From contig CALJDU010000006.1 in the NCBI GenBank assembly GCA_938024995.1, positions 83,052 to 147,051 of the forward strand: DNA of 64,000 nt, in the 5' to 3' direction. This stretch comes from an uncultured bacterium (GTDB taxonomy: Bacteria > Myxococcota_A > Polyangia > Polyangiales > Houyiibacteriaceae). Positions 43,595 through 56,181 of this stretch are shown here, piece after piece (the first letter of the stretch is position 1; the number at the start of each line of letters is the position of its first letter). Under the pieces are notes generated by a model, which was not told the DNA's origin, made no database searches, and worked only from the letters and a program-made list of their open reading frames with translations. The position numbers were made by a program, and so were the translations under genes.

Positions 43595-43673
43595 ACGAGC
43601 GGAGCCGTTGGTGCGGCACGCGGGTTGTAACCCCGCCGGCTCTGTCCAAGGAGGTTCGATTCCTTCCCGCTCG
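43595..43673 (+). tRNA. tRNA-Tyr (anticodon GUA), class II with long variable arm
   Basis: Acceptor cgagcgg/ccgctcg perfect; anticodon arm gcggg-TTGTAAC-cccgc; 13-nt variable arm; T-arm ggagg-TTCGATT-ccttc; short D-loop. Confidence 0.5.
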
Positions 43674-43678
43674 ACTGG

Positions 43679-43836
43679 GTTTTGGGAGGGTCTGTTCGGA
43701 CCCTCCCTCCAAATAGCCAAGTGATTTGGAGCCTCCCTCCTACGTTCGCTTCGCTCAGTTTTTGGAGGGTCTGTTCGGACCCTCCCTCCAAATAACCAAG
43801 TGATTTGGAGCCTCCCTCCTACGTTCGCTTCGCTCA
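43679..43836. repeat. Two tandem 79-bp copies of array repeat family (hairpin ggagggtc-tgttcg-gaccctcc + tail ttggagcctccctcctacgttcgcttcgctcag)
   Basis: Directly visible; copies 43679-43757 and 43758-43836 are ~97% identical. Confidence 0.8.
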
Positions 43837-43941
43837 TCGCTCCTTCGTCGCTCTTGTTCGTGCTCGCGTGCGTTCGTTTCCTCGTCACTCGCTTCGCTCG
43901 TTTTCGCCAACCCAACCCAACCCAACCTCAACACACAACAC

Positions 43942-44013
43942 GGGGCATTAGCTCAAAGGCTAGAGCAGCCGGCTCTTAACCGGTCGATCAGGGTTCGAGT
44001 CCCTGATGCCCTA
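43942..44013 (+). tRNA. tRNA-Lys (anticodon CUU)
   Basis: Canonical cloverleaf: ggggcat / gctc-aaaggct-gagc / gccgg-CTCTTAA-ccggt / caggg-TTCGAGT-ccctg / atgccct. Confidence 0.75.
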
Positions 44014-44167
44014 CCGCGCTCACGCGATCTCCGGATCGCCGCGGCGCCACGGCCGAGGTGCGCGCTTCGCGAGCCTCACGACCCTCGGGTCACCGTTGTT
44101 CTCGTTCTTTTGAAAACTCATGGATCGGTCGCCATCGGGCGCTCGATCTCATCTGAAGCACACACGT

Positions 44168-44240
44168 TCCGGATTGGTCCATTTGGTGAGGGCGCACGGC
44201 TCTGAACCGTGAGGGCGGGGTTCAAATCCCTGATCCGGAT
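44168..44240 (+). tRNA. tRNA-Gln (anticodon CUG)
   Basis: U1-A72 acceptor (tccggat/atccgga); D stem gtcc/gggc; anticodon arm cacgg-CTCTGAA-ccgtg; T-arm cgggg-TTCAAAT-ccctg. Confidence 0.6.
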
Positions 44241-44572
44241 CTGGTGTTCGCCTCGGTCATGCACGGGCTGCGTATTCGCGCTTGTCATCGACCAAGGCTG
44301 TGCCGCGGGACTCGTCCCGTTTTCAACCTGCTCGTCTCTCGGAGGAGAGGCGGGTGGAGCAGGTCGCTCCCCAAGGGAACGTCCTGGTGCTTCAGAGCTC
44401 CTTGAAAATCTGGGGACGCAGGGCGGTGTAGCGCCTGCCCTGCTCAAGTTCATTCGGTCTCGTGCCGCGTGGAGAGTTCACGCTCTTCGCGCGGCACGTC
44501 AGACCGGTATTCGTCGGGCCACCGTCCCCATCGATCGCTTCACCGTGATCGATGGGAGGGCCCGGCGCGTAT

Positions 44573-44647
44573 TCCGCTGAAGCTCATTGGAAGAGCACCC
44601 GGCTGTTAACCGGAGGGGTGCAGGTTCGAGTCCTGCCGGCGGAGCCA
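44573..44647 (+). tRNA. tRNA-Asn (anticodon GUU)
   Basis: tccgctg…cggcgga-G-CCA; loop CTGTTAA; T-arm gcagg-TTCGAGT-cctgc; CCA encoded. Confidence 0.75.
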
Positions 44648-44650
44648 AAT

Positions 44651-44723
44651 GTTTGGGTGGCGTAGCTGGTGCGCGCGCTTGGTTGAAGCCCAGGAGGAGC
44701 TGGTTCGATCCCGGCCCCAAACA
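44651..44723 (+). tRNA. tRNA-Phe (anticodon GAA)
   Basis: gtttggg/cccaaac acceptor; D gcgt/gcgc; anticodon arm cttgg-TTGAAGC-ccagg; T gctgg-TTCGATC-ccggc. Confidence 0.7.
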
Positions 44724-44761
44724 CCGGTCGATGGCTGTCATGCAGCCAGCGACCAAAGCAA

Positions 44762-44837
44762 CCGCTTGTCGTCTAACGGTTTAGGACGCTCGTCTGATAC
44801 ACGGGCAATGGAAGTTCGATTCTTCCCAAGCGGACCA
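44762..44837 (+). tRNA. tRNA-Ile (anticodon GAU)
   Basis: ccgcttg/caagcgg acceptor; anticodon arm ctcgt-CTGATAC-acggg; T ggaag-TTCGATT-cttcc; CCA encoded. Confidence 0.6.
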
Positions 44838-44902
44838 TGTTCTGTTCGACGGAACGAAAAACGCGCCGCCGAGGCGACGCGTTCTACGCTCTTCCGAGCC
44901 GC

Positions 44903-45955
44903 CTACCAGCGCACGAAGCGCGAGATGCGGCGCACGCGGGAGTGGCTGGAGCCATCCGAGTCGAGCGAGAGCTCGGCGAGTGTGGTGGAGTTTACGTGCG
45001 GGCCCACCGAGCTGTCGGAGACCGGGCTGTTTGCGTCGGCGCCGAGGTTGTAGGACCAGCATGCGCTGTAGTGCTGAGTCACGCTTGCGTACGCGGTCGA
45101 GCAGTTCGTGGTCGGGGAAGTGTCGTCGTCGCGGTCGAACGAGGACCAGCCCGCGTTCACCTGCGAGTTGAAGACGCCCATCGAGCCCGAGACGAACGTC
45201 GCAGAGATGCGCATTCGAACGGGATCGAACGCGCTCATGTCCGCGCGGACCGCGATTCGCTCAACGCCTCGTCGGTCTTCGAACACATCCATGAGGTCTC
45301 CTGTCGCGGCGATCTCGTAGAGCGAGCCATCGTAGAAGTTGGAGTTGATGCTGGGGCGACCGCGTCGCTCGAGGCGATTGCCGTAGGGGATGCGCCAGAA
45401 CTGAAGGGTGTTCGTTCCGAGGAGCGAGTTGTAGAGAAGCGCCCAACCACCACCGTCGAGCTCTTGCTCGCAGTACACCTCGACGACTTCCGAGCCAAGC
45501 ATCAGCCAGGTCGGACCCGATCGCGTCAAGCCTGCGTCACGCGCGGCCGCACAGCTCGCGGCGGGGTTGTCCATCGTCAATCCAGGGAGCGCGGGACCGG
45601 CTGCACCCGGTGCGCCGTCCATTCCTGGAGTTCCGGCGGCACCTGGTTCACCCGGCGCACCATCCGCTCCGTTCGTTCCGTTGATGCCGTCGGTGCCGTT
45701 CATCCCGGGCATGCCGGGGGCGCCCGATTCGCCGTTACAGATGGCGACGATCTGCTCGCCCGCTTGTATCTCGGCACCACCGTTCGCGCATCGCGGATCA
45801 CCCATGGGGATCGGCGTGACGCTCGGTGCGGGACCTGGCGTACCCATCGTGCCCATCTCGCCCATCGCGCCCATCTCTCCAGGCGGACCTTCTGTGCCTG
45901 TGCAGGCAACCAACAGTGTGAGCGCCGCGAGGGCAACCAGCTTCAAGTTGTTCAT
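44903..45955 (-). CDS. Lipoprotein with collagen-like Gly-X-Y triple-helix repeats and C-terminal fibrinogen-related (FReD) domain (ficolin-like architecture)
   Basis: Signal MNNLKLVALAALTLLVAC|TG. Two interrupted GXY runs: GPPGEMGAMGEMGTMGTPGPAPS … GESGAPGMPGMNGTDGINGTNGADGAPGEPGAAGTPGMDGAPGAAGP (about 18 GXY triplets in total), then …YCEQELDGGGWALLYN…FWRIPYG…NCSTAYASVTQHYSACWSYNLGADANSP resembling the fibrinogen C-terminal domain. Start at internal ATG 45955. Confidence 0.6.
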   Translation of the reverse strand: MNNLKLVALAALTLLVACTGTEGPPGEMGAMGEMGTMGTPGPAPSVTPIPMGDPRCANGGAEIQAGEQIVAICNGESGAPGMPGMNGTDGINGTNGADGAPGEPGAAGTPGMDGAPGAAGPALPGLTMDNPAASCAAARDAGLTRSGPTWLMLGSEVVEVYCEQELDGGGWALLYNSLLGTNTLQFWRIPYGNRLERRGRPSINSNFYDGSLYEIAATGDLMDVFEDRRGVERIAVRADMSAFDPVRMRISATFVSGSMGVFNSQVNAGWSSFDRDDDTSPTTNCSTAYASVTQHYSACWSYNLGADANSPVSDSSVGPHVNSTTLAELSLDSDGSSHSRVRRISRFVRW

Positions 45956-46039
45956 GTCTAACGATCTCCGAAAACCGGGGATCGAAGCGTCCTCCAAATA
46001 GGTCACGTTGGTTCGATTTGACCTGCTCTGTACAGATTT

Positions 46040-46111
46040 GCTCTCGATGCTCGATGGACGAGCAACCGTCTTCTAAACGGCTCGCTGCGGGTTCGACTCC
46101 TGCCGAGAGCG
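46040..46111 (+). tRNA. tRNA-Arg (anticodon UCU)
   Basis: gctctcg/cgagagc; D gctc/gagc; loop CTTCTAA; T gcggg-TTCGACT-cctgc. Confidence 0.7.
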
Positions 46112-46115
46112 CCGG

Positions 46116-46189
46116 ACCTTCGTGGCTCAAAGGAAGAGCGCGCGTTTCCTAAACGCGTGATGAGAGTTCGAGTCTCTCCGAAGGTGCCA
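46116..46189 (+). tRNA. tRNA-Arg (anticodon CCU)
   Basis: accttcg/cgaaggt; D gctc/gagc; anticodon arm cgcgt-TTCCTAA-acgcg; T gagag-TTCGAGT-ctctc; CCA encoded. Confidence 0.75.
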
Positions 46190-46262
46190 ACGATCTGGTG
46201 GCTCTACGCGCAGCGCTATCGCTTCGCTCACGGGCTTGCTTGCAAGCTCATCAAGTTCTTTA

Positions 46263-46335
46263 CGCCGGGCTCTGGGAAAGCTGGTTGGTTTCCAAATCCG
46301 ACTGCAGGCGAGGTTCAACTCCTCGACTGTGTTTT
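46263..46335 (+). pseudogene. tRNA-Trp-like pseudogene (CCA anticodon loop, degraded acceptor/D-arm)
   Basis: Near-identical to the 46467-46541 copy but with a broken acceptor 3' strand and a T·T in the anticodon stem. Confidence 0.3.
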
Positions 46336-46412
46336 TTGGAGGGTCTGTTCGGACCCTCCCTCCCAACGAACAAGTAGTTGGGAGCCTCCCTCCTACGTTC
46401 GCTTCGCTCAGT
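46333..46412. repeat. Array repeat family copy (hairpin + tail)
   Basis: ttggagggtctgttcggaccctccctcccaacgaacaagtagttgggagcctccctcctacgttcgcttcgctcag. Confidence 0.8.
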
Positions 46413-46466
46413 CGGATTCGCTTCGCTCATGGCTTGCTTGCACGCAGCCGTCAGCACCTTTTACGC

Positions 46467-46541
46467 CGGGCTCTGGGAAAGCTGGTTGGACTCCAAATCC
46501 GACTGCAGGCGAGGTTCAACTCCTCGACGGCGTGCCGCGCT
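46467..46541 (+). pseudogene. tRNA-Trp-like element (anticodon CCA), non-canonical D-arm; possible pseudogene
   Basis: Acceptor acgccgg/acggcgt (6/7 bp); anticodon arm ttgga-CTCCAAA-tccga; T cgagg-TTCAACT-cctcg; no foldable D stem. Confidence 0.3.
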
Positions 46542-46567
46542 CAGATGAGCGTTCCTTTGCAGTGATG

Positions 46568-46636
46568 AGTGGTTCTGGGGAGGGTTCATACCCCTCCCTT
46601 CGTCAGTTCGATTCTGACCGCTGCATCTGAGTTTCT
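46568..46636 (+). pseudogene. tRNA-Met-like element (anticodon CAU) with truncated D-arm
   Basis: Acceptor tgcagtg/cgctgca; 7-bp anticodon helix with loop TTCATAC; T gtcag-TTCGATT-ctgac; 5' half is 4 nt short. Confidence 0.3.
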
Positions 46637-46710
46637 TGGAGGGTCTATCCGACCCTCCCTCCCAACGAGCAAGTAGTTGGGAGCCTCCCTCTTTTGTTCG
46701 CTTCGCTCAG
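46632..46710. repeat. Array repeat family copy
   Basis: ttggagggtctatccgaccctccctcccaacgagcaagtagttgggagcctccctcttttgttcgcttcgctcag. Confidence 0.8.
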
Positions 46711-46847
46711 CGGGTTCGCTTCGCTCACGTCGTGCTCGCTGGCGTCAGCTCGCGAGCAGGAGAGCAAAAAACTGTCGGTCGTTCGTCGACCATGGCGGCA
46801 CGGCGGGCCGTCGCGTGCATCGGTGCGAAAGCAACGGTGCGCGCTTT

Positions 46848-46919
46848 GCCTTTCAAGCGTAGATGGCGACGCCCTCCGCTCGTAACGGGGAGAGCTGGGT
46901 TCAAGTCCCAGGAAAGGCT
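46848..46919 (+). tRNA. tRNA-Thr (anticodon CGU)
   Basis: gcctttc/gaaaggc; D gcgt/acgc; anticodon arm ctccg-CTCGTAA-cgggg; T ctggg-TTCAAGT-cccag. Confidence 0.7.
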
Positions 46920-46926
46920 CTGAGTA

Positions 46927-47003
46927 TTTTGGAGGGGCTGTCCGCCCCTCCCTCCCAACGAACAAGTAGTTGGGAGCCTCCCACCCATGTTCGCTTCGCT
47001 CAA
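46927..47003. repeat. Array repeat family copy (ggagggg-ctgtccg-cccctcc variant)
   Basis: Followed directly by MITE-like element Y (46990-47100). Confidence 0.8.
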
Positions 47004-47110
47004 TATTCTTTGTTCCGCGCCGCCGGCGCTGACGCCGCTCGGTCTTCGCTTCGCTCCGGACCTCGCGCCTACGCGCCTGCTCGGAACCAATATCGTTCGC
47101 TTCGCGAACT
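46985..47110. repeat. MITE-like element Y (reverse-complement copy of 21377-21470)
   Basis: ~95% identity over ~95 bp to the rc of the 21.4-kb copy; imperfect inverted termini. Confidence 0.55.
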
Positions 47111-47254
47111 CGGCGGCGTACTTCTGGAGGGGCTGCCGGCCTTCACCACCACGCGAACTCGCCGCCGTCTTTCGCGTTGCGGTTTTGCTTTGCGGTTTTG
47201 CTTTGCGGTTGCGTCGCATGTCGCCTCAAGCGTTCGTTGCTCTTGCCTCTCAAG

Positions 47255-47325
47255 CGTAGATAGCGACGCGCTTGGCTTGTAACTGAGAGAGCTGGGCGCA
47301 CGTCCCAGGAGAGGCTCTGTTTGTG
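47255..47325 (+). pseudogene. Degenerate duplicate of tRNA-Thr(CGU) (T-loop and anticodon arm mutated)
   Basis: caagcgtagatagcgacgc…agctgggcgcacgtcccagg aligns to 46851-46919, but the T-loop is cgcacgt and the anticodon arm is lost. Confidence 0.3.
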
Positions 47326-47354
47326 TTCGCGTTGCCGCTCGCGGCAACGCTTTT

Positions 47355-47425
47355 GCGGGTGTCGTCTAACGGTAAGACACCGGTCTTCCAAACCGTGAAT
47401 GAGGGTTCGATCCCCTTCTCCCGCT
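47355..47425 (+). tRNA. tRNA-Gly (anticodon UCC)
   Basis: gcgggtg…ctcccgc-T-CC; loop CTTCCAA; T gaggg-TTCGATC-ccctt; close to canonical bacterial Gly-UCC. Confidence 0.65.
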
Positions 47426-47590
47426 CCGATCGCGCCGGGCTTAGCAACTCGGCAGGTGTTCGTGACTCGTTGACTCGCTGAGTTTTTGCGTCTGCGATCA
47501 CTGGGAGCTCTGTTCCTCGCACGGGCGGCGTGCGGGCTTGTGCAGAGTCTCTCTCCTTCGCGCATCCAGCTCACGTTGCGATGCGCCCAT

Positions 47591-47667
47591 GACGCGTTGG
47601 TCTAGTTGGCAAGGACGTCTGATTCTCAATCAGAAGGTCACGGGTTCGATCCCCGTACGCGTCACCA
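47591..47667 (+). tRNA. tRNA-Glu (anticodon CUC)
   Basis: gacgcgt/acgcgtc; D gtc-tagttggcaa-gga (Glu-type D-arm); anticodon arm tctga-TTCTCAA-tcaga; CCA encoded. Confidence 0.75.
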
Positions 47668-47672
47668 AACAT

Positions 47673-47745
47673 ACTGCGTTGCGCATCTGGGATGCGGCTC
47701 GGTTGTCTCCCGAGTGAGACGGGTTCGATTCCCGTACGCAGTGCC
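47673..47745 (+). tRNA. tRNA-Asp (anticodon GUC), copy 1
   Basis: actgcgt/acgcagt; D cgca/tgcg; anticodon arm ctcgg-TTGTCTC-ccgag (U37 unusual); T acggg-TTCGATT-cccgt. Confidence 0.55.
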
Positions 47746-47771
47746 GCGTGAGAGCGCTGTTCGAGATACTT

Positions 47772-47845
47772 GCTGCGTTGTGCATCTGGGATGCAGACCC
47801 ACTGTCTATGGGTTGAGACGGGTTCAATTCCCGTACGTAGCGCCA
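47772..47845 (+). tRNA. tRNA-Asp (anticodon GUC), copy 2 (diverged paralog)
   Basis: gctgcgt/acgtagc; D tgca/tgca; anticodon arm accca-CTGTCTA-tgggt; T-loop TTCAATT; CCA encoded. Confidence 0.55.
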
Positions 47846-47873
47846 CCACGTTCGCAACACGCGAGCAGGGTCT

Positions 47874-47947
47874 ACGGCGATGGTCCAACGGAAAGATCCA
47901 TGGTTGCCAGCCACGAGATAGGGGTTCGATTCCCCTTCGCCGTACCA
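47874..47947 (+). tRNA. tRNA-Gly (anticodon GCC), odd D-arm
   Basis: acggcga/tcgccgt; anticodon arm catgg-TTGCCAG-ccacg; T agggg-TTCGATT-cccct; CCA encoded. Confidence 0.5.
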
Positions 47948-47951
47948 AACG

Positions 47952-48027
47952 TTTTGGAGGGTCAGTCGGACCCTCCCTCCCAACGGCTCTAGTTGGAAGC
48001 CACCCTCCTACGTTCGCTTCGCTCAGA
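47952..48027. repeat. Array repeat family copy
   Basis: ttggagggtcagtcggaccctccctcccaacggctctagttggaagccaccctcctacgttcgcttcgctcag. Confidence 0.8.
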
Positions 48028-48095
48028 GGATTCGCTTCGCTCATCTGCTTGCTCGCAGGGAGCGTGTCACGCGAAGCGTTCGCTGGAGGTTTCTT

Positions 48096-48182
48096 GGAAG
48101 GAGAATCGGCTAGGAGCCGGACTGGATTGCTAATCCATGTGTGCGTCTGTTGGCGCATGGGGATCGAGACCTCTTCCTTCCT
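48096..48182 (+). tRNA. tRNA-Ser-like (anticodon GCU), class II, non-canonical D-hairpin and T-loop
   Basis: Acceptor ggaagga/tccttcc perfect; 5-bp D hairpin cggct-agg-agccg; anticodon arm tgga-TTGCTAA-tcca; variable-arm hairpin tgcg/cgca; T-loop ATCGAGA lacks TΨC. Confidence 0.35.
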
Positions 48183-48187
48183 CCTTT

Positions 48188-48346
48188 TTATTGGAGGGTC
48201 TGTTCGGACCCTCCCTCCAAGTAAGTAAATGACTTGGAGCCTCCCTCCCACGTTCGCTTCGCTCTGTTTTTTGGAGGGTCAATCGGACCCTCCCTCCAAG
48301 TAAGTAAATGACTTGGAGCCTCCCTCCCACGTTCGCTTCGCTCTGA
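48188..48346. repeat. Two tandem copies of array repeat family
   Basis: 48188-48266 and 48268-48346; hairpin loops tgttcg vs aatcg. Confidence 0.8.
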
Positions 48347-48417
48347 CTCGCTCCGCTCGTCTTTGCGTGCTCGCGTGCATGGCAACGTTCGTTCTGGCCT
48401 CGCGAGAGGCAACACTT

Positions 48418-48490
48418 GGTGGTCTCGCACAGGTGTGTCCGCGCGGATGTGACCCGCGTCGGCAACGGGTTCAAGTCCCGCCGATCACCC
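48418..48490 (+). tRNA. tRNA-His-like (anticodon GUG), copy 1; lacks canonical G-1
   Basis: ggtggtc/gatcacc-C; anticodon arm cgcgg-ATGTGAC-ccgcg perfect; T (a)cggg-TTCAAGT-cccg; short D-loop. Confidence 0.4.
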
Positions 48491-48536
48491 CACTGTTCAC
48501 AGTTCACAACTGCTCTCCGAATTTCGGTGAGCACCC

Positions 48537-48607
48537 GGGCCTGTATTTCAACGGGAGAATGCTTGTTTCGCACGCAGGCGATGAGGGTTCGATTCCCTCC
48601 TGGTCCA
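48537..48607 (+). tRNA. tRNA-Ala (anticodon CGC) with G3·U70
   Basis: gggcctg/ctggtcc gives G3·U70 (the Ala identity pair) and U6·U67; D gttc/gaat-like; loop TTCGCAC; T gaggg-TTCGATT-ccctc. Confidence 0.6.
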
Positions 48608-48650
48608 CTGTCGCTTCGTCGCTCGCGTCGAAGCGAAGTTCGTTTCACTT

Positions 48651-48724
48651 GGTGGTCGCGCACAGGTGTGTCCGCGCGGATGTGACCCGCGTCGGCGTTC
48701 GGGTTCAAGTCCCGCCGATCACCC
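48651..48724 (+). tRNA. tRNA-His-like (anticodon GUG), copy 2
   Basis: Same structure as 48418-48490 with point differences; no CCA. Confidence 0.35.
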
Positions 48725-48863
48725 CGGGCTCTTCGGAGTCAACCTCAGGCTGAGGGCTCAGTAGGGAGCTTCCCGATTTGGACTCGGGCGGTGCAGGTGC
48801 AACTCCTGTCAGCTTGACCGGTGCGCCGCGTCTTCGTTCGACGAGATGCGGTGCGCTTGATCC

Positions 48864-48936
48864 TGGGCATGTAGTTCAACGGGAGAATGTCTGTCTTGCA
48901 CACAGCGGATGAGGGTTCGATCCCCTCCTTGTCCAC
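48864..48936 (+). tRNA. tRNA-Ala (anticodon UGC) with G3·U70
   Basis: gggcatg/cttgtcc; compensatory C5-G68 to A5-U68 change versus the CGC paralog; loop CTTGCAC; T gaggg-TTCGATC-ccctc. Confidence 0.6.
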
Positions 48937-49129
48937 CGGTTTTCTAGGGTCTTTTTTCGAAGACCCTCTCCGCTTCGCGGATTCACCCAAAACGTTCGCT
49001 TCGCTCTCTGCGCGCCCGCGTTAGCCAAAAGTCGTCCGCTCTGGTCGCAGCGCTCCCGGCGCTCCAGACGTTTTGGCGTCGCGGAGCTTGCTGTCTCAAT
49101 CTGTTGGGTCGTCTTCGAAAGACCCGTTT

Positions 49130-49200
49130 GCCCTTGCAGCACGATGGTCGTGCACTCCTCCGGTACAGGAGCGGAACGGGTTCGATTCCCGTCGAGGGCT
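49130..49200 (+). tRNA. tRNA-Thr (anticodon GGU)
   Basis: gcccttg/cgagggc; D gcac/gtgc; anticodon arm ctcct-CCGGTAC-aggag; T acggg-TTCGATT-cccgt. Confidence 0.65.
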
Positions 49201-49205
49201 CCGTG

Positions 49206-49284
49206 TTTTTTGGAGGGGCTGTCCGCCCCTCCCTCCAAACGAGCAAGTAGTTTGGAGCCTCCCTCCCATGTTCGCTTCGCTCAG
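49206..49284. repeat. Array repeat family copy (start of 240-bp tandem unit)
   Basis: ttggaggggctgtccgcccctccctccaaacgagcaagtagtttggagcctccctcccatgttcgcttcgctcag. Confidence 0.8.
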
Positions 49285-49366
49285 TATCGTTCGCTTCGCG
49301 AACTCGGATCCGTCTTTCGGGTTGCCTGGTTCGCCGGGCTGCAGGGGCAGAGCGTTCTCTGCTCTC

Positions 49367-49438
49367 GCGGGGTTTGTAGTCTGGGACTGCGCCACTCTTA
49401 CAAAGTGATTCAGCAGGGTTCGATTCCCTGACTCCGCA
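49367..49438 (+). tRNA. tRNA-Val (anticodon UAC), copy 1
   Basis: gcggggt/actccgc; D gtag/ctgc; anticodon arm ccact-CTTACAA-agtga; T caggg-TTCGATT-ccctg. Confidence 0.7.
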
Positions 49439-49602
49439 CCGCTGTGCTTTTGGAGGGGCTGTCCGCCCCTCCCTCCAAACGAGCAAGTAGTTTGGAGCCT
49501 CCCTCCCGTGTTCGCTCAGTATCGTTCGCTTCGCGAACTCGGCTCCGTCTTTCGGGTTGCCTGGTTCGCTGGGCTGCAGGGGGCAGAGCGTTCTTCGACT
49601 TC

Positions 49603-49674
49603 GCGGGGTTTGTAGTCTGGGACTGCGCCACTCTTACAAAGTGATTCAGCAGGGTTCGATTCCCTGACCCCGCA
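49603..49674 (+). tRNA. tRNA-Val (anticodon UAC), copy 2 (tandem duplicate)
   Basis: Identical to copy 1 except acceptor accccgc (perfect pairing); part of a ~240-bp tandem repeat. Confidence 0.7.
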
Positions 49675-49863
49675 CCGCTGTGTTTTTGGAGGGGCTGTCC
49701 GCCCTCCAAACGACTCTAGTTTGGAGCCTCCCTCCCATGTTCGCTTCGCTCAGTATCGTTCGCTTCGCGAACTCGGCTCCGTCTTTCGGGTTACCGGGTT
49801 CGACGGCCGCGCGGGAGCAGAGCGCTCCTCGACTTCGTCCTTCGTCGCTCTCTTCGTCTTCTT

Positions 49864-49938
49864 CTGGGCCTGTAGCTAAGCGGGAAAGCAGCCGGCTTTT
49901 AACCGGCAGATCGTGAGTTCAAATCTCACCGGGCCTAC
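49864..49938 (+). tRNA. tRNA-Lys (anticodon UUU)
   Basis: gggcctg/cgggcct; anticodon arm gccgg-CTTTTAA-ccggc; T gtgag-TTCAAAT-ctcac; CCA encoded. Confidence 0.7.
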
Positions 49939-49944
49939 CAATAA

Positions 49945-50020
49945 ATACTCTCGAAGCTCAACTGGATGAGCGCTCGGCTACGGACTGAGAGGGTGCAGGT
50001 TCGACTCCTGCCGAGAGTGC
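49945..50020 (+). tRNA. tRNA-Arg (anticodon ACG)
   Basis: actctcg/cgagagt; D gctc/gagc; anticodon arm ctcgg-CTACGGA-ctgag; T gcagg-TTCGACT-cctgc; CCA encoded. Confidence 0.8.
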
Positions 50021-50093
50021 CATGTCTCTTTACCCAAGTAAGCGGAGCAAGCAAGAAGGCGAGTCACGCGAAGACGTCAGCCCAGTTCGCGAA

Positions 50094-50180
50094 GCGAACG
50101 ATACTGAGCGAAGCGAACATGGGAGGGAGGCTCCAAACCATTTACTTGTTTGGAGGGAGGGGCGGACAGCCCCTCCAGAA
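50094..50180. repeat. Array repeat family copy, inverted orientation
   Basis: gagcgaagcgaacatgggagggaggctccaaacc…ggagggaggggcggacagcccctccag. Confidence 0.75.
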
Positions 50181-50186
50181 AGCATT

Positions 50187-50259
50187 GTGCTGGAGTACAG
50201 GCGCGACCGTCTCGGCTGCAACCCGATATGTGTGAGTTCAATTCTCACCCAGCACTCCA
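50187..50259 (+). tRNA. tRNA-Cys (anticodon GCA)
   Basis: gtgctgg/ccagcac-T-CCA; loop CTGCAAC; T gtgag-TTCAATT-ctcac; compact D region. Confidence 0.55.
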
Positions 50260-50260
50260 A

Positions 50261-50334
50261 GCTCCCATAGTGAAACGGAATCACGCTGGTCTCCGAAACC
50301 GGTAGTCCAAGTTCGAGCCTTGGTGGGAGTGCCA
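50261..50334 (+). tRNA. tRNA-Arg (anticodon CCG)
   Basis: gctccca/tgggagt; D gtga/tcac; anticodon arm ctggt-CTCCGAA-accgg; T ccaag-TTCGAGC-cttgg; CCA encoded. Confidence 0.7.
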
Positions 50335-50351
50335 ATCACGCAGTGAATTAA

Positions 50352-50421
50352 CGCTATGCGCCGCGGCCGGCAGACGCCTCTCATACGGGCGAGCTCGAAG
50401 GTTCAACTCCCTCCATAGCGA
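50352..50421 (+). tRNA. tRNA-Met (anticodon CAU), weak D-arm
   Basis: cgctatg/catagcg perfect; anticodon arm cgcct-CTCATAC-gggcg; T-loop TTCAACT. Confidence 0.45.
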
Positions 50422-50453
50422 CTGGGTCTCCGGACCTTAACATCCGAGTGTAG

Positions 50454-50530
50454 CTCAGCCTGGAAGAGCACACCGTTCGGGACGGTGAGGTCGCAGGTTC
50501 GGATCCTGTCACTCGGACCATTCTATCCGC
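50454..50530 (+). tRNA. tRNA-Pro (anticodon CGG)
   Basis: Fully canonical: ccgagtg / gctc-agcctggaa-gagc / caccg-TTCGGGA-cggtg / gcagg-TTCGGAT-cctgt / cactcgg-A-CCA. Confidence 0.85.
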
Positions 50531-50565
50531 GTCGCAAACATCACTGGCGTCGCGAGCACGTCGAT

Positions 50566-50660
50566 GAGCGAAGCGAATCCGCTGAGCGAAGCGAACATGG
50601 GAGGGAGGCTCCCAACTACTTGCTCGTTGGGAGGGAGGGGCGGACAGCCCCTCCAAAAAG
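50566..50660. repeat. Array repeat family copy, inverted orientation
   Basis: gagcgaagcgaatccgctgagcgaagcgaacatgggagggaggctcccaactacttgctcgttgggagggaggggcggacagcccctccaa. Confidence 0.75.
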
Positions 50661-50665
50661 CACAG

Positions 50666-50741
50666 CAGGGTGAAGTCTTGTCGGGAAGACGCTCGTCTGG
50701 GAGGCGAGAGGTTGCTGGTTCAACTCCAGCCACCCTGACCA
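50666..50741 (+). tRNA. tRNA-Pro (anticodon GGG)
   Basis: cagggtg/caccctg; anticodon arm ctcgt-CTGGGAG-gcgag; T gctgg-TTCAACT-ccagc; CCA encoded. Confidence 0.8.
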
Positions 50742-50746
50742 ATTTG

Positions 50747-50820
50747 GTTTCCATAGTGAAAAGGAATCACACGAGCTTGCGGAGCTCGCATTCTAGGTTC
50801 GAGTCCTAGTGGAAACGCCA
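50747..50820 (+). tRNA. tRNA-Arg (anticodon GCG)
   Basis: gtttcca/tggaaac; D gtga/tcac (same D-arm as Arg-CCG); anticodon arm cgagc-TTGCGGA-gctcg; T ctagg-TTCGAGT-cctag; CCA encoded. Confidence 0.7.
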
Positions 50821-50881
50821 ATCGAGCCTGCTCGAGTCGACGCACGCTTGGAGAGAGCCGGCGAGCATGAGAGCAAGCTGC

Positions 50882-51050
50882 TCGCTGATGCGGACTAGGG
50901 ACGCGCAAAGCGCGAACCGAAGGGAGCATCAATCACGCGGCGCGATGGGGGTGAATGCCGAAGGCAGAGGGGGGAACGCCCTGCAAGCGGTCGTGGTGAT
51001 GCGGACAAGGTACGCGCAAAGCGCGAACCGAAGGGAGCATCGCGCACTGC
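50882..51050. repeat. Two direct ~50-bp repeats (gatgcggac.agg.acgcgcaaagcgcgaaccgaagggagcatc) separated by ~70 bp
   Basis: 50882-50931 and 50999-51049 differ at about 3 positions. Confidence 0.6.
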
Positions 51051-51124
51051 CGCGCGCAGCAGAGCGAAGCGAACGGCGGGAAGCGCGAAGCGCTGGGGTC
51101 TGCGACTCAGACCCCATAGATTTA

Positions 51125-51205
51125 GCCTAGGTGGCGGAACGGTTTACGCAGCGGTCTCAGACTCCGTGCCCTCAAGGGATGCAGGTTCGACTCCTGTCCT
51201 AGGTA
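51125..51205 (+). tRNA. tRNA-Leu (anticodon CAG), class II
   Basis: gcctagg/cctaggt; 3-bp D stem gcg/cgc; loop CTCAGAC; variable-arm hairpin ccc-tcaa-ggg; T gcagg-TTCGACT-cctgt; A73. Confidence 0.6.
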
Positions 51206-51337
51206 CCGCGCTCAGCGATGAGCGTTACACGATCGAAATGGTTCGGTCGTGGTCAGTCGCGCTCGGATCCTCTCCGAGCCGATGCTGTTCGCGTTTGCGA
51301 GCGGCGCCATTTGGCGCGCGCGTGACCACGTGCGCGC

Positions 51338-51880
51338 ATGAAACGCGCAAACCGCGCGAGGAGGTGGCCCATGCGCACGCTCGTACTGGACCAAGGTTAC
51401 CAACCGCACCGCATCGTCTCCTGGGAGAAGGCGGTCACCATGCTCTACGTCGGAAAGGCCGACCTCGTGGAGCACTACGACGACGAGATCCGCTCGACCA
51501 GCATGACGATGTTCATGCCGGCGGTCGTTCGGCTCACCCGCGGGCTCAAGTACCGCAAGAAGTCGATCAAGTTCTCGCGGCTCAACGTCATGATGCGTGA
51601 CGGATTCTCCTGCCAGTACTGCGGCACCGAGATGAAGATGCGCGACCTCACGTACGACCACGTCCTGCCGCGCGCGCGCGGAGGGAAGACCACGTGGACG
51701 AACATCGTGACCGCGTGCCGTGACTGCAACGAGCAGAAGGCCGACCGCACTCCGAAGGAGGCAGGGATGCCCCTTCTGAAGAAGCCCATCAAGCCGCTCT
51801 GGCTGCCGACAGGATCGTTTCACGTAGACGACCTCCGGCTCCCCGAGACCTGGCGGAACTGGGTGTCGTGGGCTGCCTAA
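51338..51880 (+). CDS. HNH endonuclease
   Basis: HNH motif YDHVLPRARGGKTTWTNIVTACRDCNEQK (His-Asn-His plus a Cys zinc finger); sits inside the tRNA array. Confidence 0.75.
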   Translation: MKRANRARRWPMRTLVLDQGYQPHRIVSWEKAVTMLYVGKADLVEHYDDEIRSTSMTMFMPAVVRLTRGLKYRKKSIKFSRLNVMMRDGFSCQYCGTEMKMRDLTYDHVLPRARGGKTTWTNIVTACRDCNEQKADRTPKEAGMPLLKKPIKPLWLPTGSFHVDDLRLPETWRNWVSWAA

Positions 51881-51928
51881 AGCAGCACTTGTTCTCGCTC
51901 GCTTGAGCTTGTCTCGAGCGAGCATCCA

Positions 51929-52002
51929 CACCACTGTGGCCCAACTGGAAGAGGCGTCTGACTAAGGATCAGAAGGTTGTGAGTTCGAATCTCACCAGTG
52001 GT
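51929..52002 (+). tRNA. Class-I-length tRNA with Leu anticodon AAG and A73 (unusual)
   Basis: accactg/cagtggt; D gcc(c)/ggc; perfect anticodon arm tctga-CTAAGGA-tcaga; 5-nt variable loop; T gtgag-TTCGAAT-ctcac. Confidence 0.5.
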
Positions 52003-52006
52003 ACCG

Positions 52007-52079
52007 AACCATCGTGGCCCAACGGAAGAGGCACCTGTTTCAAACTCAGGGTGTTGTGAGTTCGACTCTCACCGATGGT
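52007..52079 (+). tRNA. Class-I-length tRNA with Leu anticodon CAA and A73 (paralog of previous)
   Basis: accatcg/cgatggt; same D-arm; anticodon arm cctgt-TTCAAAC-tcagg (U·U closing pair); T gtgag-TTCGACT-ctcac. Confidence 0.45.
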
Positions 52080-52087
52080 ACCGATTA

Positions 52088-52400
52088 CTTGGGGGGATTT
52101 TTCGATCCCCCTCTCTCCCGTTGGTCGACTCACCCCAAACGTTCGCTCCGCTCTGGCTGCGCGCGAAGTGCGCGCCGCTCCTCGACCGGTCGCTTTGCTC
52201 CCCATCTCGTTGCGTCACCACGTCGCTTGCTCTTGTTTCCTAAGGGGATTTTTCGAGACCCTTCTCGGCTTCGCCGATTCATCCCAAACGTTCGCTTCGC
52301 TCTGCTGCGCACACAAATGCGCGACGCTCTCTTCGGTCAGCGCTTTGCGCTTCCCTTGTCGTGTCACCAATTGTGTTTGCTTCATGCTTGCTCGCTCGTC
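52088..52400. repeat. Two ~150-bp direct repeats of hairpin + conserved tail (ggggattttcgatcccc… / ggggatttttcgagaccc… …ccaaacgttcgct(c/t)cgctctg(g)ctgcgc)
   Basis: 52088-52240 and 52245-52400 share ~70% identity, including the palindromic head and acgttcgcttcgctc tail. Confidence 0.6.
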
Positions 52401-52515
52401 TCTGCACCTTTGGTGCGTTCGACTTGCTTTGCGGCTCCGAAACTACGCGTCGCATTCCGCGGCGCTTCGCGTTCGTGTTCTTTCTGTTGCCGCGGGTGGA
52501 CGCGAACGTGAATCT

Positions 52516-52599
52516 CGAAGGTAATTTGATCTGGAGATCAACGCCGCCTTGAAAGCGGAGGGAGCCGAGAGGCTTGGAGTTCAATTCTTCTACCTTCGG
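52516..52599 (+). tRNA. tRNA-Ser (anticodon UGA), class II with unusual 5-bp D-hairpin
   Basis: cgaaggt/accttcg perfect; D hairpin tgatc-tgga-gatca; anticodon arm ccgc-CTTGAAA-gcgg; variable hairpin gcc-gaga-ggc; T-loop TTCAATT. Confidence 0.45.
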
Positions 52600-52604
52600 C
52601 AAGT

Positions 52605-52688
52605 GGAAGAGGATCTGATCCGGGATCAGGGCCGAGTGGAAATCGGTGCGCGCCTTCTCGGCGTGGGGTTCGACTCCTCTCTCTTCCT
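52605..52688 (+). tRNA. tRNA-Ser (anticodon GGA), class II with unusual D-hairpin
   Basis: ggaagag/ctcttcc perfect; D hairpin ctgat-ccggg-atcag; anticodon arm ccga-GTGGAAA-tcgg; 6-bp variable hairpin cgcgcc/ggcgtg; T gggg-TTCGACT-cctc. Confidence 0.45.
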
Positions 52689-52859
52689 CCCTTCCCAACA
52701 ACAACCGTCGCGAGCCCTCGCGCGGCAGCCACCGCGGAGCGAGCGTTCAAACACCAAAGCGAAGCGACGTGTTTGGACTGTCGCGGAGCGGGCGAACGAA
52801 TGTGAGCGTGGGTGAATGCGCGAAGCGCAGAGGGGCGCAATCGCCCCTTCAAACAACAT

Positions 52860-52947
52860 CGAAGACAAACTGATCTGGGATCAGGCCTGCCTCGAAAACA
52901 GTGCGCGCCTTGATCGGCGTGAGGTTCGATTCCTCTGTCTTCGGCCA
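52860..52947 (+). tRNA. tRNA-Ser (anticodon CGA), class II with unusual D-hairpin
   Basis: cgaagac/gtcttcg-G-CCA; D hairpin ctgatc-tggg-gatcag; anticodon stem ctg(c)/(a)cag with compensatory C-G to U-A change versus the GGA paralog; loop CTCGAAA; T gagg-TTCGATT-cctc. Confidence 0.45.
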
Positions 52948-53060
52948 CTGCCCGCGGAGCTCGGCAACGAGACCTGCAAGAGCTCCTCCCGTCACTCGCG
53001 GTTCACCGGCACCTCATCAGGTCCGGTCGCTTCGCACCCACGCGCTCATCTGCGCTCTTT

Positions 53061-53137
53061 GTCCTTGTCGTCTAATGGTTCAGGATTTTCCGGCTTTCAA
53101 CCGGTGGATGCGGGTTCGAATCCCGCCGGGGACGCCA
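53061..53137 (+). tRNA. tRNA-Glu (anticodon UUC)
   Basis: gtccttg…cggggac-G-CCA; D gtct-aatggttc-agga; loop CTTTCAA; T gcggg-TTCGAAT-cccgc; closely matches the E. coli Glu pattern. Confidence 0.8.
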
Positions 53138-53188
53138 TTCTCATCGCGCCATCGCGCATCACTTTTCACCGCTCACCTTGAGGTCGTC

Positions 53189-54589
53189 ATGGAATCGCTC
53201 GTCCACGCCGCGCCGACTGAGGTGCGCAAACGAAATGAACACACGTCCCCAGAGTCGCGCGTCGCGCTTTACGCGGCGATCGGCAGCCCGCGTTCCATTC
53301 TCAGAGCGCGACCCACAACGGAAGAGCGACGGATCGAAGACGCGGAAGTGGTCTCGGCCGCCGCGCGTGTGTCCCCCAAGTTCCTCGCTGCCCACGCGCT
53401 CGCCTCGCGCGCGCTCGGGGAGTCTTCCCGTGCGCCCGCGCTCTTGTGCGCGCTCCTCTCTCATCGGGATCCGGCTCTCCTCGCGGAGGTCTTCCCATGC
53501 GTCATCAATACGCCCGCGCTCGTGCGTCGCTTCGTCGGCGTTGTGCGCTCGGGCGTGAGCGGTCGTCGCTCGCTCGGGAGCGCGCCGAAACGCTTGATCG
53601 CGCGTTGGCTGCGATCGCTGTCAGACGACGCGGTGCTGACGAACGGCGCGAAGCTGCGCGACGTGATCCGCTTGTCTCATCCGCGACCTCGGTCCCGTGC
53701 CCGTGCGGCGCTGTATCGGCTTCTGCTCTCACGTCCATACGATGCCCATCGCTTGCCGAGATTGGCGAGCATGTGGGTCGCGTCCCAGAGCGGTGGCGAT
53801 ATCGACGAGCTCCCGCTCTCGCTCTGTCGCGTTAAGAAGGTCGGGATCCGCGCTCCGAGCGAGTATCTCCCTGCAGTCGCGCGAGCGTCTGCGCATGAGC
53901 TCGTGACGTCGCTCGATTGGCTGCGCGGGTTCGCCGACGACGCGCTCGTGGCCGCGGTCGCGACGCGACTTCGTGAGGCACGGGCCGAAGATGTGCGTCC
54001 CTACGCGCTGCTCCGTCTCCTTCGCGCGACGAGCTCACCCCGCGAGTGGGTGGACGCTGGGTTTTCACTTCTCGATCGCGCGAGTGAACGATCGAGCGAG
54101 GTTCGCGGGACGCTCGTCGTGGACACGAGCGCTTCGATGACCGCGCCCCTCTTCGCTACGCGAGGTGAGCGTCGAGATCCGATCGATGGACTGGATGTCG
54201 CGGCGCTCCTCATGACGACCCTCCGGGGACCTCATTTGCACGTGGTCGACTTCGCGGGTCGCCCGCTCTCGTCCGAGGGCGGCGTCCAAGATGTTCGCGG
54301 TCGTCTGGGGAATCTCCTCAGCTCGCCGCGTTCTGTCTCAAGCGCGATCGAGCAGCGGAGCGGAGAAATGATCGTGGTCACCGACGACGTCGGCTCGGAG
54401 CGCGCCTTGGCGCGTCTTGGTCAACGTCATGGCGCCGCGCTCAGCGTCGTCGACCTGTGCCCGACGAGCGTGGGTCAAGTGGCCGTCCGCTCCACCCGTT
54501 TCGCGGGTTTCAACGACATCTCGCTTCAGGTCCTGATGGACCGCGCCCAGCAAAAGACCTCTGTCCAGGAGGCCCGCTGGGCGTCTTAA
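53189..54589 (+). CDS. rsr: Ro60/TROVE-domain protein with C-terminal vWA domain (Rsr, Ro sixty-related RNA-binding protein)
   Basis: Recalled TROVE-like motifs: GRRSLGSAPKRLIARWL resembles GWGRGLR.AVA.WY, and NGAKLRDVIRLSHPRP resembles GWSHRDLLRLAHPKP. C-terminal MIDAS motif in LVVDTSASMTAP. Start ATG 53189 (an alternative TTG at 53177); the longer ORF 52901.. overlaps the tRNAs. Confidence 0.65.
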   Translation: MESLVHAAPTEVRKRNEHTSPESRVALYAAIGSPRSILRARPTTEERRIEDAEVVSAAARVSPKFLAAHALASRALGESSRAPALLCALLSHRDPALLAEVFPCVINTPALVRRFVGVVRSGVSGRRSLGSAPKRLIARWLRSLSDDAVLTNGAKLRDVIRLSHPRPRSRARAALYRLLLSRPYDAHRLPRLASMWVASQSGGDIDELPLSLCRVKKVGIRAPSEYLPAVARASAHELVTSLDWLRGFADDALVAAVATRLREARAEDVRPYALLRLLRATSSPREWVDAGFSLLDRASERSSEVRGTLVVDTSASMTAPLFATRGERRDPIDGLDVAALLMTTLRGPHLHVVDFAGRPLSSEGGVQDVRGRLGNLLSSPRSVSSAIEQRSGEMIVVTDDVGSERALARLGQRHGAALSVVDLCPTSVGQVAVRSTRFAGFNDISLQVLMDRAQQKTSVQEARWAS

Positions 54590-54706
54590 ACACCTCACGT
54601 CTCTTTTCCGTCGCGCCGCCCGCGATGGCTTGGATCCGCGTGAGTCACTTGAGAGCACTCCTGGATGGCGTTGAGATCGCGCCCGTGCTAATCCCGTCCC
54701 CGATTT

Positions 54707-54780
54707 TCCGGAGTCGTCTAATGGCAGGACAGCGGACTTTGAATCCGTGAATGGTGGTTCGAATCCACCCTCTGGAACCA
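54707..54780 (+). tRNA. tRNA-Gln (anticodon UUG)
   Basis: U1-A72 acceptor tccggag/ctctgga-A-CCA; anticodon arm gcgga-CTTTGAA-tccgt; T ggtgg-TTCGAAT-ccacc. Confidence 0.8.
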
Positions 54781-54918
54781 AACCCAGCGCGAACCTCGCG
54801 CTGGGTCTTTTAATGGCGTGGTGTCTTCTCATGGCGTGCTTGGGCCAGCGTCCGCTTTGGCGGAGAGATTCGCTTCGTGAATCGCGACGTGTAGACTTAG
54901 CGCAGGAGGCTCTCTTTC

Positions 54919-55716: not shown

Positions 55717-55736
55717 CGCGACGTCTCGCGGAACGA

Positions 55737-55770
55737 AAAAAGCCAGGCGGTGACGCCTGGCTTTTTTTGG
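55737..55770. terminator. Bidirectional rho-independent terminator hairpin
   Basis: aaaaagccaggcg-gtga-cgcctggcttttttt: 9-bp GC stem flanked by an A-run and a T-run, between convergent genes. Confidence 0.65.
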
Positions 55771-55811
55771 ACCGCAACTTGAGTCGAAGCGGCCGACGCA
55801 GAACGCAGAGC

Positions 55812-56120
55812 TCAGAACGCCGACGTCTGCTCCGCGGCGGCCTTCGCTTCATGGTCCGCGGCGCAGCGGGGGCACGCGACAGCTTCCTTCGCGATCTCGT
55901 AACCGGCGCCGCCGGGATCGTCGAAGTGCTTGGCCTTGCGGCCAATGCGGAGCTTGTTGGCCTTGGGTCGGCTCGGGTATTCGGTCGGACGGGTCTCAGT
56001 GGTGACGCGGACCGAAGGGGTCCGGGCCGGCATGACCATGTCGCAAAGTTCACAGCGGTACATTCGAAAAGATTCCTCCAGGAAGGGCGGTGGTCTAACA
56101 GCCTCGTCCCATGTGGGCAA
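55812..56120 (-). CDS. Zinc-ribbon small protein (FmdB-family-like putative regulator)
   Basis: YRCELCD…ACPRCAAD gives CxxC…CxxC. The functional start is probably internal at MYRCEL, giving ~83 aa. Confidence 0.4.
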   Translation of the reverse strand: MPTWDEAVRPPPFLEESFRMYRCELCDMVMPARTPSVRVTTETRPTEYPSRPKANKLRIGRKAKHFDDPGGAGYEIAKEAVACPRCAADHEAKAAAEQTSAF

Positions 56121-56181
56121 GCGACGGGCTGCAATGGTTTGAGCTGGCCCTGCGCGCGGCTCGGCGGGGCGCCAAAGGCCG

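Follow-up and report, generated by a model that had tools for sequence, protein, structure and literature searches.

Does a bacterial chromosome encode histidine transfer RNAs (tRNAs) that lack G-1, and were these genes and the alanine tRNA genes among them shaped by a single history of duplication and divergence? The question is posed by positions 48418-48937 of a 64,000-nucleotide (nt) stretch of DNA from an uncultured member of the Polyangiales (hereafter the window), in which the initial annotation recognised a pair of tRNA-Ala genes and a pair of tRNA-His genes. Both pairs are present, but the tRNA-Pro gene between them, and the tRNA array in which they are embedded, had been overlooked: the plus strand carries five tRNA genes in the order His(GUG)-Ala(CGC)-His(GUG)-Pro(UGG)-Ala(UGC). 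The five genes are part of an array of at least 40 tRNA genes, and it is likely that this array was acquired and that the His pair is a recent duplicate of a conserved, non-canonical tRNA-His with an encoded G-1 (Table 1).

The reported absence of G-1 was an error of register. The frame of the first His gene (copy 1) is set by its T loop, TTCAAGT, which places the 3' strand of the T stem at 48477-48480(81), and that of the acceptor stem, CGAUCAC, at 48482-48488. The 5' partner of the latter, GUGGUC(U/G), starts at 48419, which is position 1; G48418 then pairs with C48489 as G-1:C73, and an encoded CCA follows at 48490-48492. In copy 2, G-1 is 48651, position 1 is 48652, and the paired C73 is 48723, followed by CCG. 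All eight acceptor pairs are intact in copy 2, whereas copy 1 has a U7·C66 mismatch. Numbering from 48418 as position 1 leaves two unpaired nucleotides between the T and acceptor stems, or moves the T loop off TTCAAGT, and only the G-1 register yields both this loop and a contiguous acceptor/T helix. The software agrees: with its threshold lowered by 5%, ARAGORN called both GUG genes as tRNA-His, with position 1 at 48419 and 48652 and a C discriminator; RNAalifold, applied to an alignment of the gene family described below, paired column 1 (G-1) with column 74 (C73); and a custom covariance model also selected this register. None of the seven family sequences departs from the G-1:C73 pair, and CCA directly follows C73 both in copy 1 and in the relative from a Polyangiales chromosome (locus L043). 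The types of tRNA-His without G-1 described by Mukai et al. (2017, PMC5389517) have A73 or U73; the window genes have G at -1 and C73. As G-1 has not been lost, neither the Thg1-like enzyme nor the atypical histidyl-tRNA synthetase (HisRS) that the initial annotation suggested is required, and no search for either is called for. Its description of the anticodon stems was correct, as both copies have five perfect pairs (CGCGG/CCGCG) closing the loop AUGUGAC.

Genes for tRNA-His with T at -1, no encoded G-1, and yet C73 do occur in a separate family of dense arrays from soil metagenomes (locus L122, 1567-1640, plus strand; also L130, L133, L137, L145 and L157). It is to these genes, rather than to those of the window, that the missing G-1 of the initial annotation applies, and they would need either post-transcriptional addition of G-1 or a tolerant HisRS.

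The body of the window tRNA-His genes is what departs from convention. They share with canonical E. coli-type tRNA-His the GUG anticodon, the encoded G-1:C73 pair, a pyrimidine at -2, the UUCRA T loop and the GG of the D loop, but only 16 nt separate the acceptor stem from the anticodon stem, rather than the normal 18-22. Read from the 5' end, G-1 and a seven-base-pair (bp) acceptor stem are followed by a single linker nucleotide (C or U) in place of U8-N9, a 4-bp D stem, and a D loop of four nucleotides, RGGU (five in locus L125). The next three nucleotides are predicted to pair, across a 1-nt bulge, with the first nucleotides of the variable region, which would lengthen the anticodon helix to about 8 bp. 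Then come the 5-bp anticodon stem with its NUGUGAY loop, two to four variable nucleotides, a T stem, the TTCRANT loop and C73. The T stem is reduced to 4 bp by a 49·65 mismatch in nearly all family members. Hence the 2-nt linker, 7-11-nt D loop and 5-bp T stem of canonical tRNA-His are all lacking. In their place, five lineages have a compact core: a single linker nucleotide, at most 5 nt in the D loop, more than 5 bp in the anticodon helix, and few nucleotides in the variable region. A structural parse of fixed length fits all five with the same segment lengths, although their stems differ in sequence: the D stems are GCAC/GUGU, GCAG/CUGU, ACAG/CUGU, GCAU/AUGC and GGUG/CACU, and the 3-bp extensions are CCG/CGG, ACA/UGG, GCG/CGC, CGG/UCG and CCC/GGG.

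These lineages, all of them in Polyangia-type arrays, were identified by pattern scans of genomes and metagenomes. The relatives come from the Polyangiales chromosome (L043), a metagenome-assembled genome labelled 'Deltaproteobacteria' (L016), an uncultured Sandaracinus (L082), two metagenomic near-copies (L123 and L152) and a short metagenomic contig (L125). The first genome-wide pattern was too loose, returning at least 119 matches that were mostly canonical tRNA-His in a shifted register; among the matches listed, only L016, L043 and L082 were true relatives. The other matches from the metagenome scan were likewise canonical or unrelated His genes. The same kind of scan of viral contigs found no compact tRNA-His, its sole match being an unrelated phage tRNA-Phe region, and the compact genes had no relative among phage and plasmid records searched with BLAST. 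None of the four arrays (window, L016, L043 and L082) has a His gene other than those of the compact type.

The compact layout is not a chance arrangement, as is evident from a covariance model (R1) built from six family sequences, with L125 held out. Its training sequences scored 78-96 bits (87.7 for copy 1 and 95.6 for copy 2) and L125 scored 48.5 bits, whereas every ordinary tRNA in 235 kilobases (kb) of arrays scored 41.5 or less. In the model-fitted alignment, 96.3% of the cells assigned to pairs were paired, compared with 80.0% in shuffled alignments (reached by none of 500 shuffles), and 13 of the 24 pairs changed on both sides, compared with 5.2 expected from the shuffles. Sliding the structures by one to three columns left at most 52% paired. 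The minimum free energy folds of copy 1 and of the L016 gene are exactly the compact cloverleaf.

The two His genes of the window have a much simpler relationship. They differ at three sites, none of them part of a compensatory change, and their similarity is limited to 48413-48491 and 48646-48725, beyond which the flanks are unrelated. Few differences and gene-sized similarity together identify the pair as the product of a recent, gene-sized duplication or gene conversion. One of the three differences breaks pair 7-66 in copy 1, which is G7-C66 in copy 2 and in all relatives, and copy 1 may therefore be starting to decay. Further gene pairs in the array are those for Val(UAC), Asp(GUC) and a Trp(CCA)-like tRNA, the last likewise with 16 nt between acceptor and anticodon stems. 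Read by eye, the upstream Trp-like copy (46262-46333) has T73, a U31·U39 mismatch and additional mismatches in the acceptor stem; it looks like a duplicate in decay.

The two Ala genes have a longer history. They differ at 11 of 71 positions (84% identity), and are old isoacceptor paralogues rather than fresh duplicates; two Ala isoacceptor genes are also adjacent in related arrays. Most of the initial annotation holds for them: both keep G3·U70, as seen in the pair table and the Rfam alignment; pair 5-68 has undergone a compensatory change, from C-G in Ala(CGC) to A-U in Ala(UGC) or the reverse; the U6·U67 mismatch is common to both; and the D stem is unusual, being GUUC/GAAU in Ala(UGC) and UUUC/GAAU in Ala(CGC). 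The latter stem brings an additional U10·U25 mismatch, and the Rfam alignment of Ala(UGC) has an additional U27·C43 mismatch. The full identity set of alanyl-tRNA synthetase (G1-C72, G2-C71, G3·U70 and A73) is complete in both, such that both should be charged with alanine, and it is invariant in all 11 array-borne Ala genes of five related arrays. The idea that the mismatched positions might be sequencing errors was not borne out, as the same traits recur in phage tRNA-Ala and among related arrays: a Polyangiaceae array (L039) has a 6-67 mismatch in each of its three Ala genes, and 5 of the 11 array-borne genes have a GUUC/GAAY D stem, to which the UUUC/GAAU of Ala(CGC) is near-identical. Hence the proposal of duplication followed by divergence with preservation of structure is right in that the genes are paralogous, with stems that have survived substitution and D arms of an unusual kind, but it does not provide one story for both pairs, the His pair being recent and uncompensated and the Ala pair old.

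Several observations weigh against regarding the compact genes as functional tRNAs. Asked to judge them, the predictors gave a divided answer: at a 95% threshold ARAGORN calls both as His, but with default settings it is silent on both, while at those settings it does identify the L016 and L082 relatives as His. Both also fall below the gathering score of the Rfam tRNA family, RF00005. The only Rfam matches were non-significant ones to the selenocysteine tRNA (tRNA-Sec) model, at 21.1 and 23.5 bits relative to a gathering score of 47, and a Sec-like identity was rejected on these scores, the GUG anticodon and the absence of a long variable arm. The covariation is drawn from seven sequences of five lineages, in an alignment itself fitted to the structure model. 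Single-sequence folding energies are no better than those of shuffled sequences (z = -0.1 to -1.7), although such z-scores are uninformative for RNAs as GC-rich as these. RNAalifold favours a sixth anticodon-stem pair over the bulge and 3-bp extension, and hence the exact form of the predicted extension is not settled. Mismatches are present in the stems, U7·C66 in copy 1 and 49·65 in almost all family members. Finally, the apparent decay of other duplicates, such as the Trp-like copy, would place the array under relaxed constraint.

These points give some substance to the reading of the GUG genes, or at least of copy 1, as non-functional relics, with the real tRNA-His encoded elsewhere in the genome. 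It draws on the sub-threshold scores, the two mismatches, the degraded Trp-like neighbour and an anticodon set that is incomplete, lacking Ala(GGC) and Val(GAC), and so unable to serve as a sole tRNA set. Yet relics would not be expected to have identical segment lengths, conserved loops and 13 covarying pairs across five lineages, nor an invariant G-1, C73 and GUG, nor to be the sole His genes of four arrays. The structure of the gene has moreover been kept where the flanks of these lineages are only 48-64% identical, no better than the unrelated flanks of the duplicated His pair, although the comparison of gene with flank discriminates weakly, because the baseline in GC-rich DNA is already 50-60%. 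We consider this reading unlikely. The compact genes are probably functional variants of tRNA-His, their role in translation being one that we infer from sequence.

A different challenge comes from the possibility that these RNAs are non-decoding tRNA mimics, acting as decoys for toxins or anticodon nucleases, or as ligands of a Ro60/Rsr-like protein, in the manner of the tRNA-like domains found in Y RNAs. An Rsr-like gene is indeed located inside the array, arrays have been discussed as anti-defence elements (PMC12803027, PMC10264068), and Mukai et al. (PMC5389517) reported irregular G-1 tRNAs that are charged by E. coli HisRS, yet do not insert His in an E. coli reporter. However, Rfam matches to the Y RNA YrlA are sub-threshold (20.9 and 14.8 bits, with a gathering score of 69) and none is beside the rsr-like gene, while the two Rsr homologues checked elsewhere are not in tRNA arrays. 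A decoding tRNA needs what these genes have, namely the YUGUGAY anticodon loop, the T loop and all His identity elements, and the compact genes stand in series with about 38 ordinary ones, making mimicry improbable. Least credible of all is the reading from which this analysis started, in which the GUG genes begin at position 1 without G-1, and depend on a G-1-independent HisRS or Thg1-like addition. It has precedents in alpha-proteobacterial (7/5) and phage (8/4) tRNA-His with A73 or U73 (PMC5389517), and in the soil arrays with T at -1 and C73. Nevertheless, in the window genes it requires two unpaired nucleotides between stems or a shifted T loop, and a discriminator that is C rather than A, and it is opposed by the CCA that follows C73 in copy 1 and L043, by the agreement of ARAGORN, RNAalifold and the covariance model, and by the invariance of the pair.

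If the compact genes are functional tRNA-His with G-1, their maturation would be straightforward. The encoded G-1:C73 pair would create an 8-bp acceptor helix, from which RNase P would cut between -2 and -1, retaining G-1; it is established for E. coli (summarised in PMC5389517) that such a helix directs RNase P one nucleotide upstream of its usual site. An ordinary bacterial HisRS could then read G-1, C73 and GUG. The 4-nt RGGU loop would still present G18-G19 to the intact TTCRA T loop, and the three extra pairs could substitute for the usual tertiary layers, such that the distance from anticodon to elbow would be roughly preserved, as judged from structure. Processing, charging and use in translation are thus steps that we infer rather than observe. 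Tentatively, this may be extended to the proposal that the compact tRNA-His is a translationally active elongator, in which the core layers (U8-A14, 15-48 and 26-44) are replaced by three pairs and a 4-nt D loop, as an independent solution like those of pyrrolysine tRNA (tRNA-Pyl) and mitochondrial (mt) tRNA-Ser(UCN), and that it is kept in the arrays of Polyangia, possibly to escape a tRNA-targeting nuclease or toxin with its HisRS identity intact.

The likeness to these two tRNAs is structural only, and implies no homology. With tRNA-Pyl and mammalian mt-tRNA-Ser(UCN), the compact tRNA-His shares a 1-nt linker between the acceptor and D stems, a D loop of 4-5 nt, an elongated anticodon stem and a short variable region (PMC7609411). 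Its bulge resembles the unpaired nucleotide on the 3' side of the anticodon stem in M. alvus tRNA-Pyl, and, like mt-tRNA-Ser(UCN), it keeps G18G19 and T-Psi-C (PMC7609411). It is unlike both in its His identity with G-1, its anticodon helix of about 8 bp rather than 6, and its location in a bacterial chromosomal array. Within the histidine tRNAs, the 8-bp acceptor and 4-bp T stem recall the (8/4) tRNA-His of alpha-proteobacterial phages, but the published ones lack G-1 and have A73 or U73 (PMC5389517), whereas in the compact gene G-1:C73 itself is the eighth pair; the irregular G-1 tRNAs that the same paper describes from acidobacterial polycistrons have the anticodon GGU, whereas the compact gene has GUG. 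A D arm of compact form combined with an extended anticodon helix is not mentioned in the accessible portion of that paper, and the searchable literature yielded no account of a tRNA-His that has both G-1 and a compact core. If this tRNA is functional, its tRNA-Pyl-like core must be tolerated by bacterial HisRS, RNase P, EF-Tu and the ribosome alike, which would be relevant to the relationship between tRNA structure and function, and possibly provide a scaffold for engineered tRNAs.

The array around these genes is large and dense, with at least 40 tRNA genes (approximately 3.6 per kb over 11.2 kb) on a single strand, jointly covering all 20 amino acids. It thereby exceeds the 20 genes and two genes per kb that define a tRNA array unit (PMC4758250). 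At least six genes were missed by ARAGORN with default settings and seen at relaxed thresholds, namely both His genes, Ser(GCU), Trp(CCA), Cys(GCA) and Ser(UGA); as the standard predictors miss the compact tRNA-His, annotations will under-count the tRNAs of Polyangia arrays. A 53-bit Rfam match to tRNA-Sec at 52515-52599 proved to be the tRNA-Ser with anticodon UGA. Neither default nor relaxed settings of ARAGORN found Ala(GGC), Val(GAC) and certain other anticodons, and, as a high-GC genome needs these, the array is not expected to be the only tRNA set of the cell.

The array was probably acquired horizontally, and is probably a phage-derived, supernumerary set later reshuffled by gene-sized duplications. 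A foreign origin is suggested by its lower GC content, the broken synteny at ruvC, the HNH endonuclease gene within it, its phage-like Ala genes and its likeness to the tRNA region of the Tunturiibacter jumbo phage Tunturi_5. The GC content is about 0.60, compared with 0.64-0.68 in the flanks. The host itself was placed by its RuvC, for which the best named homologues are from Myxococcota/Polyangiales. Relatives have the order ruvC-ruvA-ruvB (RuvC 67-70% identical; L163 and L165), whereas in the window ruvC (56182-56676, minus strand) lacks the following ruvA-ruvB, and a lipoprotein gene and the tRNA array are there instead (54919-56676), which suggests insertion or rearrangement. The closest matches to the Ala genes in the phage collection, at 77-81% identity, are the tRNA-Ala of Tunturi_5, T5-like coliphages and Gordonia phages, with D stems of GUUC/GAAC in Tunturi_5 and GUUU/GAAC in T5-like phages. 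In the tRNA region of Tunturi_5 the genes run Pro-His-Ala-Ala-Ala, HNH and RtcB genes are close by, and the tRNA-His shares the acceptor sequence GUGGUCG with the window. Hence an HNH gene among tRNAs and the character of the Ala genes are shared with phage tRNA regions, but the phage tRNA-His has a normal D arm. Homologous arrays are present in Polyangiales, Polyangiaceae, Sorangium, Sandaracinus and the 'Deltaproteobacteria' assembly, and that of the Polyangiales chromosome (L043) starts Tyr-Lys(CUU)-Gln(CUG), like the window array.

Neither this type of array nor the presence of non-canonical tRNAs in phage and array clusters is new. The window array matches tRNA array units and L-arrays (Tran et al. 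2016, PMC4758250; Santamaria-Gomez et al. 2021, PMC8421152) in having at least 20 genes, at two or more per kb, on one strand, and in being rarely periodic, probably supernumerary, patchy in distribution and reshaped by duplications and deletions; to this it adds the Rsr-like gene, the HNH gene and a two-hairpin repeat of its own in about 21 copies. L-arrays comprise up to 43 genes, supply supernumerary tRNAs and spread by horizontal transfer, and that of Anabaena helps survival under translational stress (PMC8421152). Array units have been put forward as putative anti-defence systems (PMC12803027), with spare tRNAs discussed as a counter to tRNA-targeting defences (PMC10264068, PMC12803027). 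By analogy, the window array might provide backup tRNAs under translational stress, or against an attack on tRNAs, and the co-location of Ro60/Rsr-like and HNH genes ties it to phage-style RNA-repair and anti-defence modules. The accessible parts of both surveys (PMC4758250, PMC8421152) make no mention of hosts from the Myxococcota or Polyangia, and no description of tRNA arrays in myxobacteria or Polyangia was found in the searchable literature. This work adds to it a family of such large arrays from myxobacteria of the Polyangia.

Table 1. Coordinates in the window, strand and supporting evidence for the tRNA array and its features
Feature	Position	Strand	Evidence
Whole tRNA array (L-array or tRNA array unit)	43596-54780	+	ARAGORN default, 34 genes; at least 6 more at relaxed thresholds
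Trp(CCA)-like pair	46262-46333 and 46463-46534	+	Bacterial Trp identity A1-U72, G73
tRNA-Trp(CCA)	46463-46534	+	Relaxed-threshold ARAGORN
tRNA-Ser(GCU)	48096-48184	+	Relaxed-threshold ARAGORN
tRNA-His(GUG) copy 1	48418-48492	+	Sequence; structural parse; ARAGORN -ps95 (48419-48492); covariance model, 87.7 bits
tRNA-Ala(CGC)	48537-48608	+	ARAGORN default; Rfam RF00005, 52.3 bits (gathering score 29)
tRNA-His(GUG) copy 2	48651-48723	+	Sequence; structural parse; ARAGORN -ps95; covariance model, 95.6 bits
tRNA-Pro(UGG)	48746-48819	+	ARAGORN default; Rfam, 29.1 bits (gathering score 29; borderline)
tRNA-Ala(UGC)	48865-48937	+	ARAGORN default; Rfam RF00005, 58.0 bits (gathering score 29)
tRNA-Cys(GCA)	50187-50259	+	Relaxed-threshold ARAGORN; U73 and CCA
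HNH endonuclease	51338-51880	+	Pfam HNH_5, E = 4.6e-18
tRNA-Ser(UGA)	52515-52600	+	Relaxed-threshold ARAGORN
Divergent Ro60/Rsr-like gene (466 amino acids)	53189-54589	+	Homologue search; between tRNA-Glu(UUC) and tRNA-Gln(UUG)
Intrinsic-terminator-like hairpin	54782-54806	+	11-bp stem and T run, directly after the last tRNA gene

The remaining contents of the array are varied. The tRNA-Pro between the His and Ala genes has the ends typical of recognition by prolyl-tRNA synthetase, C1-G72 and A73, together with a deviant T loop, UGCAACU, with G at position 55. A Pfam scan of the Ro60/Rsr-like open reading frame gave no domain match, but its homologues have TROVE and vWA domains (PF05731, PF25045), the best being 32% identical (E = 3e-37), and the same 466-residue gene is called in independent assemblies. 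The HNH gene sits between tRNA-Leu genes, and HNH genes are likewise placed in the tRNA regions of T5-like phages and Tunturi_5.

Two tandem tRNAs with Leu anticodons, AAG at 51930-52005 and CAA at 52008-52082 (plus strand), are 75-76 nt long and without a long variable arm; with this class-I size, A1-U72 and A73, they may be anticodon-shifted tRNAs, and AAG is itself an unusual Leu anticodon for bacteria. The array also carries both Arg(GCG) (50747-50820) and Arg(ACG) (49947-50022), each on the plus strand. An Arg tRNA with G34 is unusual in bacteria, where the normal choice is ACG (read as ICG).

A repeat of approximately 85 nt is present in about 21 copies, in both orientations, and within the array only (43744-52302). 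Examples are at 48186-48274, 48265-48353 and 49204-49292, with minus-strand copies at 50106-51074. Each copy has a first hairpin, GGAGGGNC..GNCCCTCC, a second directly beside it, CTCCAAGT..ACTTGGAG, and after these CCTCCCTCCCAYGTTCGCTTCGCTC, and the pairing of the hairpins is kept by compensatory differences between copies. Its 13-nt core, for which 0.5 occurrences are expected by chance, is absent from 162 other loci compared. The repeat looks like a miniature inverted-repeat transposable element or a repetitive extragenic palindromic element, or is possibly a processing signal. Lastly, a lipoprotein-like open reading frame on the minus strand in mid-array (44903-46006) encodes collagen triple-helix repeats and a domain resembling the fibrinogen C-terminus.

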